Assembly: GCA_951406725.2 (NCBI GenBank)
Contig: OX597824.1
Span: 310,001-374,000 of the forward strand
Reading direction: 5' to 3'
Length of the DNA stretch: 64,000 nucleotides
Origin: Octopus vulgaris
Taxonomy: Eukaryota
Below the pieces are notes generated by a model. The model made no database searches, had not been told where the DNA came from, and saw nothing but the letters and a program-made list of their open reading frames with translations. Of this stretch, positions 10,873 through 58,525 are shown piece by piece; position 1 is the first letter of the stretch; each line of letters begins with the position of its first letter. Both the position numbers and the translations under genes were made by a program.

Positions 10873-10918
10873 ATTTCAGTACCGGTTTCGGTCATTTTGA
10901 GACCTTTTCAACTGTAAC
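10873..10918 (-). ncRNA. Type I hammerhead ribozyme, U3-A8 core variant
   Basis: cag-UUGAAAA-gguc(ucaaaau)gacc-GAAA-ccgg-UA-cug. Confidence 0.75.
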
Positions 10919-11264
10919 GATTAAATAATTAAATTTAGAAAAATTAGAAGAAAAGTTTTTTAAAAGAATATTTCTATAGTAGTGTTCAGATTTAAGTGGC
11001 ATTCTGCCTTTCTCTGACTCCCTTGTTTGCACTTGTGTGTTGGAGGTCGTTGTGAGTTCTTGGTAGGGTAGTAGAGGAAGAAAGCTGGTGAGGAAAGGGG
11101 GTGGGAGAATCTGGGAGTGCCCTGATGGTCGTATTTTGAATGGTCAGTGGCGGCTGGCAGTCTCAGTTCAATTCAGGAGAATATTTATATTGACAGGCTT
11201 GTTTATAGAATTTGCGTAGGTGTTATATTAAAAAACATTAGTGACAACGTTAAGGGGTAGGAGG

Positions 11265-11460
11265 TGGAGAAGTAGAAGAAGAAGAAGAAGAAGAAGAAGA
11301 AGAAGAAGAAGATGACGATGTTGATGATGATGATGATGATGAAGAAGAAGAAGAAGGAGAAGGAGAAGGAGAAGATGATGGTGATGGTGGTGATGATTAT
11401 GACGACGATGATGATGATAATGATGATGATGAAGAAGAAGAGGAAGAAGAAGAAAAAAAC
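11265..11460. repeat. (GAA)n/(GAT)n compound microsatellite inside the PLE 3' region
   Basis: Seen directly. Confidence 0.95.
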
Positions 11461-11742
11461 AGAGAAGGGAGAATATGAATGGGTTAAAGTAGTGAGGTGT
11501 TGTATGACTTGAAGTTGGTATGTTATGGATTATAGCTGTGATTTAAGCTGTGATTAGTAATGGATTCTTTGGAATGTAATATTTGTGTGTGAATATTTCT
11601 TTTATTCTAAAGTTGAGGTATATTAATTGTTTGTCGTAGACCCGTTAAGAAGTGGCCTGTATTTTGCAATAAAGAGAGTTTCTTTACTTATTCGTTGTCT
11701 CGAGGTTGTATCGTCCCATATATATATATGTATATATATGTA

Positions 11743-12174
11743 TGCCAAAAAGGATGGCATCCATATGCCAAAAAGGATGGAAACAAGCAGCGCACACGGG
11801 TATGTAGGTTCTACCTGAAAGGTGCCTGCCGGCATGGAGAGGAAGGTGCAGGCTGCCGCTTTGCACATCCGGGACCCTGCCACAGAAACCAACCACCGAA
11901 AGGAAATGGGATGGACCACGCATCACCTGCCCCAAAACGGAGGTACGCAGATGTGGTGCGTACCACAAACCACCAACGTGTTGTTGAAAGGGCAGCTGCT
12001 GAGCAGGAATCTTTTTTGTGCATGGCACAAAAGATTGTACAGCAGCTAACCTGGCTCCATCAGGCTCAGGCTCGCAGATGGAAGTGCCCACAGTTCACAA
12101 GACCGCCACTGCAGATGGACCCAGGGTGGACACCGCCGGCAACAGCATACACCTCACCTCGATGCTCCTACTGA
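11743..12174 (+). CDS. LINE ORF1 C-terminal part with CCCH zinc finger (5'-partial)
   Basis: CRFYLKGACRHGEEGAGCRFAH; overlaps the ORF2 start in another frame. Confidence 0.75.
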   Translation, partial: CQKGWHPYAKKDGNKQRTRVCRFYLKGACRHGEEGAGCRFAHPGPCHRNQPPKGNGMDHASPAPKRRYADVVRTTNHQRVVERAAAEQESFLCMAQKIVQQLTWLHQAQARRWKCPQFTRPPLQMDPGWTPPATAYTSPRCSY

Positions 12175-57323: not shown

Positions 57324-57359
57324 CTTTAACGTTTCGAGTCTACGCTCTTCCACAGAAAG
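57324..57359 (-). ncRNA. Minimal hammerhead-like motif, A6U plus one extra nucleotide
   Basis: cuuu-CUGUGGA-a-gagc(guag)acuc-GAAA-cg-UU-aaag. Confidence 0.55.
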
Positions 57360-57459
57360 GAACACAGAAAGAAACAAGGAGAGAAAATAAAGAATGTGTA
57401 GCGGCTATATATATATATATATATATATATATATATATATATATATATATATATATATA

Positions 57460-57785
57460 CAGGGGTTGGACAAAATAATGGAAACACCAAGCATCATAGC
57501 ATCATAATTTTGAAATATCTAAAAAAAAAACATCAAATGCTTGTTTATTTTTAGGATTTTTTATTTATTATTAGTGTTGCTTTATATGTTTTGCTAAAAT
57601 TGCTGGGGTTTTTTCAGATATCATCAGTGAAAGGTAATTAAAATTTATTAAAATGACACATCTATCGGAATTTCAAAGAGGTCAAATTGTTGGTGCTCGT
57701 ATTGTAGGTGCTAGCGTAAAGAAAACAGCCGAAATGTTTGGTGTATGAAGGAGTACAGTCTCGAAAGTAATGACAGCCTTTAGAC
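57460..57785 (+). mobile_element. Tc1-like transposon left end with transposase N-terminus
   Basis: TA-CAGGGGTTGGACAAAATAATGGAAACA TIR; MTHLSEFQRGQIVGAR...MFGV*RSTVSKV from 57653. Confidence 0.88.
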
Positions 57786-58260
57786 ATGTTCAGTCAACCG
57801 TGTCGGCTTTAACTTACGAATGCAAGCATTGTCACTTGATACTAACACACGGACGTAGCGGAGAACCTACAAAAATTTCTAGAACCAGTTATGTGACTAT
57901 CCTCTACCAATCAAATCCTATTCAAAACATTTGCTAATTTGAGCCACGAACTCCCTATGTAAATAGGGCAAGAATCAAACACTAGTCAGAAGCAAGACAG
58001 CTGCGACATAAGCCAGGTCTTTCTATTTGAACTTTTTGAAAATCAATGCAAACTGTGAAACCGGTTAACGCTTTAAATATAATAATGATAAAAAATATTT
58101 TAACTATTACATTTTACCTAAGTCCATTTTCAACATCTATTTTTCCTATATTTCTACCCGTGGGGAGTAAAATAATTTTGTTTACTATATATATATATAT
58201 ATGTATATATATATATATATATATATATATATATATATATATATATATATATATATATAT

Positions 58261-58525
58261 ATAAAAGGAAATGAAGAAAATGCTGACAACATAATTTAAG
58301 TAATTTAAGTAATTTAATTAGGTGAAAGTTCTTTTTACCGGTTGCGCATTTGTTATGCTTATCAAAAGATAGATTTTTCCTCTTATCTGTCTTTTGATAA
58401 GCATAACAAATGCGCAACCGGTAAAAAGAACTTTTACCTAATTAAATTACTTAAATTACTTTTGTCAGCATTTTCTTCATTTCCTTTTTTATCTATCACA
58501 ACTCATGTTCCACATCTCCTTTTTT
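58261..58525. mobile_element. Foldback PLE-type terminus with ~110-bp arms, between TA arrays
   Basis: 58261-58372 is near-perfectly inverted relative to 58384-58492. Confidence 0.8.
58392..58428 (+). ncRNA. Hammerhead-like motif, U3-A8 with A13C; mirror copy at 58331-58368 (-)
   Basis: UUGAUAA-gcau(aacaa)augc-GCAA-ccgg-UA. Confidence 0.55.

Follow-up and report, generated by a model that had tools for sequence, protein, structure and literature searches.

Natural hammerhead ribozymes in which a U3-A8 core replaces the canonical C3-G8, along with stems II of 1–2 base pairs (bp) and a U10.1·U11.1 mismatch, were reported in 2011 (Perreault et al., PMC3088659); section 8 of that paper cites in vitro activity of the U3-A8 form (its ref. 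32). In 2014, U3-A8 cores were described in the Cercyon Penelope-like elements (PLEs) of Schistosoma mansoni, where a dedicated descriptor gave ~1,300 matches; Fig. S3 of that study includes two U3-A8 examples and one U3-G8 example, and variants with a palindromic helix III were found in several animals (Cervera and De la Pena, PMC4209133). The same study describes PLE minimal hammerheads as cleaving weakly, as dimers, while small PLE hammerheads with a short palindromic stem III and dimer cleavage were also reported by Lunse, Weinberg and Breaker (via the review PMC6765202). Here we analyze 64,000 nucleotides (nt) of the Octopus vulgaris genome (assembly GCA_951406725.2, contig OX597824.1, positions 310,001 to 374,000, forward strand; hereafter, the window), in which an initial annotation had recognized four loci with the sequence UUGANAA...G(A/C)AACCGGUW, one with a mirror copy, as a variant hammerhead family of Penelope-type termini. 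The core swap is not a discovery, because it was published in 2011 for hammerheads in general and in 2014 for PLEs, and the novelty implied by that annotation has to be given up; the octopus families are a further example of a known hammerhead type. Literature listings on octopus Penelope hammerheads contained nothing on this motif.

By sequence, the motifs lie in the 3' repeats (pseudo-long terminal repeats, pLTRs) of four related Neptune-type PLE families, in agreement with the Penelope-type termini first proposed. In our opinion, they are probably type I minimal hammerheads with a U-A 3-8 pair, of which the intact ones of families A and B likely cut tandem transcripts slowly, as dimers; U3-A8 would have become fixed once, in the ancestor of the clade, and family E would have mostly lost catalysis.

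The window does contain the four loci and the mirror copy. A search of both strands of the window for TTGANAA-N4-30-GMAACCGGTW gave five matches, at 10880-10911(-), 45775-45800(-), 58036-58066(+), 58336-58365(-) and 58394-58423(+), against a mean of 0.00 in 100 dinucleotide shuffles of the window. The ACCGGU helix III palindrome is present in all five copies. Type I hammerheads with GAA were also sought with a scan that takes structure into account; five rows passed its score, and among them only loci 1 and 2 have a palindromic helix III. The catalytic core (U4 G5 A6 N7, A9, G12 A13 A14, A15.1-U16.1, H17 and a Watson-Crick 3-8 pair) is complete in loci 1–3 and in families A–D; it is not complete in locus 4 or in family E as a whole, where position 13 is not A. 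Stems I and II are formed in loci 1 and 2 and weak in locus 3. Locus 1 (family A) has pairs at 7 of the 8 positions of stem I, a 4-bp stem II, GAA and the palindrome; locus 2 (family B) has seven contiguous pairs in stem I and 2 bp in stem II. In locus 3 (family D), 5 of the 8 stem I positions are paired, with two pairs contiguous, and stem II begins with a U·U mismatch. Locus 4 (family E) retains a 4-bp stem II, but its stem I, with two contiguous pairs (4 of 8 positions), does not form, and GCAA replaces GAAA, i.e., position 13 is C. Locus 4 can therefore not be counted as a member of an intact core family, and C13 is the state of the whole family, not the decay of one copy. In Rfam, locus 1 aligned in register to Hammerhead_HH9 (RF02275) at 19.7 bits (E 0.022), below the gathering threshold of 52; locus 2 and family E had no hammerhead match, and none was among the 150 matches listed of 353 for the whole window, where microsatellites matched microRNA models.

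Across eight family representatives, two of which (B and B3) are close relatives, 44 of 56 stem I positions are paired, a number reached by only 2 of 40,320 permutations of the strands; this agrees with the covarying stems of the initial annotation. A stem II base pair varies within family A (G-C, A-U or G-U). Dimer formation through a palindromic stem III had been proposed as well, and stands as far as the fold is concerned: ViennaRNA predicts a double-hammerhead dimer for loci 1 and 2, at 2.2 and 1.4 kcal/mol, respectively, above the free minimum. This is the cost of an unpaired core: the free minimum includes an additional U3-A17 pair, which in the predicted fold is possible only for a U3 core with a GUA site.

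It should be noted that genome-wide counts (2.8-Gb genome) are of motif matches, not elements, and that inverted insertions are counted twice. With an ACCGGU helix III, U3-A8 gave 11,583 matches (control 97), C3-G8 315 (control 45), U3-G8 430 (control 51) and C3-A8 334 (control 53). By these counts, the state of the family is U3-A8 rather than CUGANGA, and the single-change forms have 27–35 times fewer matches than the double change. When helix III is 4 nt long, the excess of U3-A8 is smaller (5,013 vs a control of 2,929), and canonical minimal hammerheads, at 44,643 (control 5,131), outnumber it. The expectation that CUGANGA searches would miss the family thus holds for ~14,000 ACCGGU motif copies in this genome (11,583 plus 2,392 of family E). 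Many of the listed C3-G8 matches with ACCGGU belong to one other family and to a 359-bp tandem retrozyme-like repeat (L035-L041, G000:C1 ~20.00 Mb), a separate family with a canonical C3-G8 type I hammerhead; in its dispersed, decayed relatives L116 and L117, UUGAUAA stands in place of the canonical core. A hammerhead-like motif of the C3-A8 form, which has ACCGGU but lacks clear stems and is seen beside LINE-type reverse transcriptase (RT) fragments at L120:570(-) and L121:4019(+), recurs often among the listed C3-A8 matches.

Family A has 40 scored genome copies, 98–100% identical and including that of the window, which is 94% identical to a long copy in L109; after its open reading frame (ORF) come a long 3' untranslated region (UTR) with a TTC/ATC microsatellite, the hammerhead, a ~60-nt tail and (TA)n. 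A relic second GIY-YIG C-terminus in this UTR (~11165-11215) was considered and rejected, no protein match being found in its support. Family B is young, with 124 scored copies (97–100% identical, window copy included), many with an 811-codon open frame; the window element, flanked by (TA)n and 99% identical to a full unit in L066, has a 321-codon ORF followed by the 3' UTR, the hammerhead and a ~185-nt tail ending in (TA)n. Proteins of families A and B are 53–61% identical over the longer matches. The motifs had been placed just 3' of GIY-YIG C-termini, which is correct for locus 2 (~145 nt after the ORF end at 45944) but not for locus 1 (~710 nt after the ORF end at 11623). An inverted tail copy such as the one at the truncated 5' end of the family B element is a known insertion structure of PLEs (10.1101/2021.04.23.441226). 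The family D UTR is homologous to that of L122, which follows a decayed GIY-YIG C-terminus of Neptune type, and the mirror copy, with the family E motif and tail at 58392-58496(+), forms a short inverted-repeat insertion within (TA)n.

Full units of family B are ~4.0 kb long and stand head to tail with one motif per unit (spacing 4,007 bp in L066 and 3,995 bp in L067), the motif being ~220 nt upstream of the ORF1 start of the next unit; a sense-strand pLTR position with one motif per tandem unit is seen in L066, L067, L070-L072 and L109. ORF1 overlaps ORF2 in the -1 frame. ORF2 has the features of Neptune-type endonuclease-containing (EN+) PLEs, i.e., RT, a C-terminal GIY-YIG, a CX2-5CxxC linker and a CCHH motif; the Neptune-type label is assigned from these motifs alone, the trees containing no named reference PLE. 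The GIY-YIG profile match of the family B ORF is weak and below the cut-off (E 0.017), while its protein-database homologs carry PF00078 (RT) and often also PF01541 (GIY-YIG). Since families A, B, C and E carry their own RT-endonuclease frames, they are not non-LTR retrozymes, i.e., short non-coding repeats with a canonical hammerhead. Just before the first conserved ORF2 motif, a slippery heptamer, U UUU UUA G, occurs in families A, B, C and E and in an outside relative (L109:7694(-), L066:3499(-), L106:1313(+), L114:1252(+), L200:1329(+)), in family B inside the ORF1/ORF2 overlap; it points to a conserved programmed -1 frameshift, and an ORF1 joined by frameshift is drawn for some PLEs in Fig. 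1 of PMC8557442. At L109:4560-4655, a B-subfamily element has a family A element inserted within its pLTR, ~70 nt upstream of the hammerhead; related families thus nest in each other's repeats.

Compared with the closest described systems, the octopus motifs share with those of Cercyon PLEs (PMC4209133) the type I topology, the sense-strand pLTR position, the U3-A8 core, a palindromic helix III that implies dimers, and the prevalence of solitary truncated copies and inverted pairs. They differ in their Neptune-type hosts (CX4CX2C linker), the 6-nt ACCGGU helix III, a short stem II (1–6 bp; without the customary bulged base in A, B and E), a copy number about nine times higher, and the presence of one family with C13. 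With the variants of PMC3088659 they share the covariation, the weak stem II, the U·U closing mismatch (families C and D) and the palindromic stem III; those variants are rare, and the tested core variants of its Fig. S6 legend are from phage and bacteria, with no A13C named there. The short palindromic stem III and the predicted dimers also recall the PLE hammerheads of Lunse, Weinberg and Breaker (PMC6765202). The hosts resemble Neptune EN+ PLEs (Craig et al. 2021, PMC8557442), the clade name again coming from motifs alone, in the C-terminal GIY-YIG, the CX2-5CxxC linker, the CCHH motif, (TA)n targets, tandem and inverted copies, and an optional frameshift-joined ORF1.

Related elements from other hosts (119 loci) yielded 44 hammerheads that passed a filter, distributed over 34 loci; 43 are in sense orientation, and the reversed control had none. 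The 3-8 pair is C3-G8 in 26 and U3-A8 in 18 (15 of these from one assembly), is never mixed, and is thus Watson-Crick in all 44. Two trees were obtained by quick maximum-likelihood searches with midpoint rooting; the first leaves out L212 and two distant-family rows because of their low coverage, and the second has 25 rows, near-duplicates having been removed by hand. Families A, B, C and E and the U3-G8 subfamily of B form one RT clade (SH-aLRT 100), all with U3. C3-G8 relatives surround this clade, and L200 and L208, which lie outside it, combine C3-G8 with ACCGGU and already have a 2-bp stem II or a U·U closing pair. A single origin of all U3 cores is ruled out on the second tree (p-AU 1.8e-6), on which label clustering was not significant (52–57 of 500 shuffles as low). 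Because one clade is all U3 and a single origin is rejected, U3-A8 is, on the sequences at hand, fixed in the clade of this genome and recurrent elsewhere, U3 having arisen more than once; the midpoint-rooted trees suggest the direction C-G to U-A. The "selected, lineage-level core" of the initial annotation is accordingly one RT clade with covarying stems within this genome, but not one lineage overall, as both the p-AU value and a distant AAUU family indicate. A decayed PLE of this distant family lies at 35491-36420(+) in the window, the relationship being to 35491-36316; its intact relatives have a U3-A8 hammerhead with a bulged base, a 5-bp stem II and an AAUU palindrome.

Table 1. Coordinates of hammerhead motifs and host elements in the window, with related loci elsewhere
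Feature	Position	Strand	Details
Family A type I minimal hammerhead (locus 1)	10872..10919	-	U3 at 10911; predicted cut after GUA, H17 at 10880
Family B type I minimal hammerhead (locus 2)	45768..45807	-	U3 at 45800; predicted cut after GUA, H17 at 45775
Family D hammerhead (locus 3), old and decayed	58036..58066	+	U3-A8 core, ACCGGU, H17 = U at 58066
Family E hammerhead-like motif (locus 4), predicted crippled	58394..58423	+	U3-A8 core, ACCGGU
Inverted (mirror) copy of family E motif (58336-58365) and its tail	58263..58371	-	sequence match
Family A PLE 3' end, 5'-truncated	10820..11717	-	last ~30 codons of RT-GIY-YIG ORF (ends 11623)
Family B young PLE, 3' third	45591..46909	-	RT thumb, CX4CX2C linker, GIY-YIG; ORF 46909-45944
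Inverted family B 3' tail copy at truncated 5' end	46918..47017	+	sequence match
Family D 3' UTR and tail	57781..58185	+	70-83% to L122
Distant-family U3-A8/AAUU relatives	L157, L162-L164, L182, L184, L185, L197		hammerhead match

As to mechanism, everything beyond the fold is what we infer from these features. Two motifs are predicted to pair through the self-complementary ACCGGU, so that the core of one copy and the GUH site of the other form each three-way junction. Cleavage after H17 in a tandem transcript would release a unit-length RNA with a ~220-nt leader before ORF1. Cutting is presumably weak or reversed by ligation, and the additional U3-A17 pair predicted at GUA sites would damp it further. 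In the copies inserted in the window, the motif is retained together with ~60 nt (A) or ~185 nt (B) of tail past the cut site, which calls for a template whose 3' hammerhead was uncut or re-ligated. Such a template fits either slow cleavage or the circular-RNA model proposed for PLEs (PMC4209133), and also an internal start of reverse transcription, as demonstrated in a different PLE (PMC11167929). None of 22 listed runs was on record as RNA, and four contig-only runs of guessed RNA type had no signal of a start or end at the tandem junction; contigs cannot show RNA ends, so neither result speaks for or against expression or cleavage. The swap itself was probably fixed once in the ancestor of the clade in this genome. 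Starting from a C3-G8/ACCGGU ancestor, two transitions toward AT would have led to it, likely by way of a U-G wobble, and it would have taken place independently elsewhere as well.

Several observations weigh against this account. The B families have a stem II of only 1–2 bp, and tertiary contacts between loops I and II are not evident, no search aimed at them having been made. When a type III hammerhead was subjected to deep mutational scanning, the 3-8 pair was rescued by the G-C swap alone, the other double mutants at this pair having low activity (PMC9901934), and the U3-A8 variant itself is not among the assayed constructs described in PMC4209133. The trees come from quick searches only, and family D is not placed in them. 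Finally, lesions that should impair catalysis are present in two groups that have amplified, namely family E and the U3-G8 subfamily of B. The latter (L108, L109, L110, L121), with protein 96–98% identical to B and with tandem and inverted copies, lacks one base where the 3' strand of stem I begins, which shifts that stem by 1 nt.

Family E deserves separate consideration. Changes at A13 should be strongly harmful to hammerhead catalysis. A13 belongs to the hammerhead consensus core (PMC3088659), and a literature search found no direct activity data for A13C. The family E motif has 2,392 genome copies (two mismatches or fewer); among 100 listed copies, 96 have C13, four T13 and none A13, and a direct genome search for the A13 form gave two matches, one of them E-type. 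The long copies L115, L099 and L075 are 98–99% identical to L114 over 0.7–2 kb, and L321 is 91% identical to it over 2.3 kb, gaps included. The family has its own RT frame of 765 codons, 58% identical to that of B; no fully intact copy was seen among those examined, L114 having a frameshift near the end. The constrained dimer fold has no stem I, and three long copies contain no second core, while ACCGGU, stem II and UUGAUAA are retained. Family E is thus young and has likely lost most of its catalysis, and, together with the U3-G8 subfamily, it suggests that selection on catalysis can lapse.

Family E could be taken as a young self-coding PLE that spread to thousands of copies with a dead hammerhead, so that cleavage would be dispensable for EN+ PLE retrotransposition and the conserved job of the motif in the clade would be RNA pairing or protein recognition; we regard this as possible, if doubtful. 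A related and, in our opinion, unlikely reading extends to the families in general, which would have inherited the hammerhead by descent and kept it mainly as a structural signal, for RNA dimerization via ACCGGU or as a protein binding site, with cleavage marginal or dispensable. The youth, coding capacity, copy number and family-wide C13 of family E, its missing stem I and its retained elements speak for this reading, as does the amplification of the U3-G8 subfamily with its shifted stem I; moreover, Naiad PLEs proliferate without hammerheads, and the function of hammerheads in EN+ PLEs has been termed unclear (PMC8557442). Against it, all other families examined keep G5, A6, A9, G12, A13, A14, U16.1-H17 and a paired stem I across 50–58% protein identity, the 44 of 44 Watson-Crick 3-8 pairs outside this genome are as predicted by selection on the active fold, and family E may be a recent loss with further decay still to come. 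It is very improbable that core-dead family E RNA is instead cut in trans, in heterodimers with sister families. ACCGGU is common to all these families, the core of one molecule acts on the site of the other in the predicted dimer, and the 5' strand of family C pairs with the 3' strand of family E at 5 of 7 positions; this pairing, though, is interrupted and no better than that of E with itself, and cross-family stems I mostly pair at 1–4 of 7 positions.

Scarcely credible is the notion that U3-A8 represents chance, or no more than the decay of canonical hammerheads by mutation (C to T, G to A) in a genome rich in AT. It is true that the two changes are both transitions toward AT, and that the decayed canonical retrozyme copies L116 and L117 show TTGATAA. 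Yet copies that are 97–99% identical all carry U3-A8, the rarity of single-change forms relative to the double change is the reverse of what decay should produce, and the shuffles contained no matches. Decay is thereby refuted for families A, B, C and E, and may hold for scattered old copies such as L116 and L117. The reading of families A and B as slow dimeric ribozymes with a fixed U-A pair remains, in our opinion, the best explanation.

Other elements were encountered along with these families. A decayed minimal hammerhead with a canonical core lies at 47790-47820(+), near a Poseidon-like GIY-YIG fragment at 48709-49041(-); a Poseidon-like 717-codon family, for which no hammerhead was tied to the flanks examined, was left out of the trees. 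Long endonuclease-RT frames of the non-LTR (long interspersed nuclear element, LINE) type occupy 12003-15122(+), 7434-9455(-) and 16861-20337(-), one of them with 1,039 codons and no stop. PLE frames, some with hammerheads, also occur in contigs filed under bacterial metagenome-assembled genomes (L275-L318), most likely as contamination from animal hosts, and none of 35 pattern matches in viral contigs was confirmed.

The results have implications for annotation, evolution and mechanism. The known U3-A8 descriptor should be routine in annotation, beside the ~39,500 canonical minimal hammerheads found above control in this genome. On the tree, the 3-8 pair has switched between C-G and U-A on more than one occasion, and there is a wobble subfamily. 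As a natural core mutant, family E could settle whether PLEs need hammerhead cleavage, and if it is indeed dead and has nevertheless multiplied, the sister families A, B and E would constitute a ready natural test series for the cleavage requirement.

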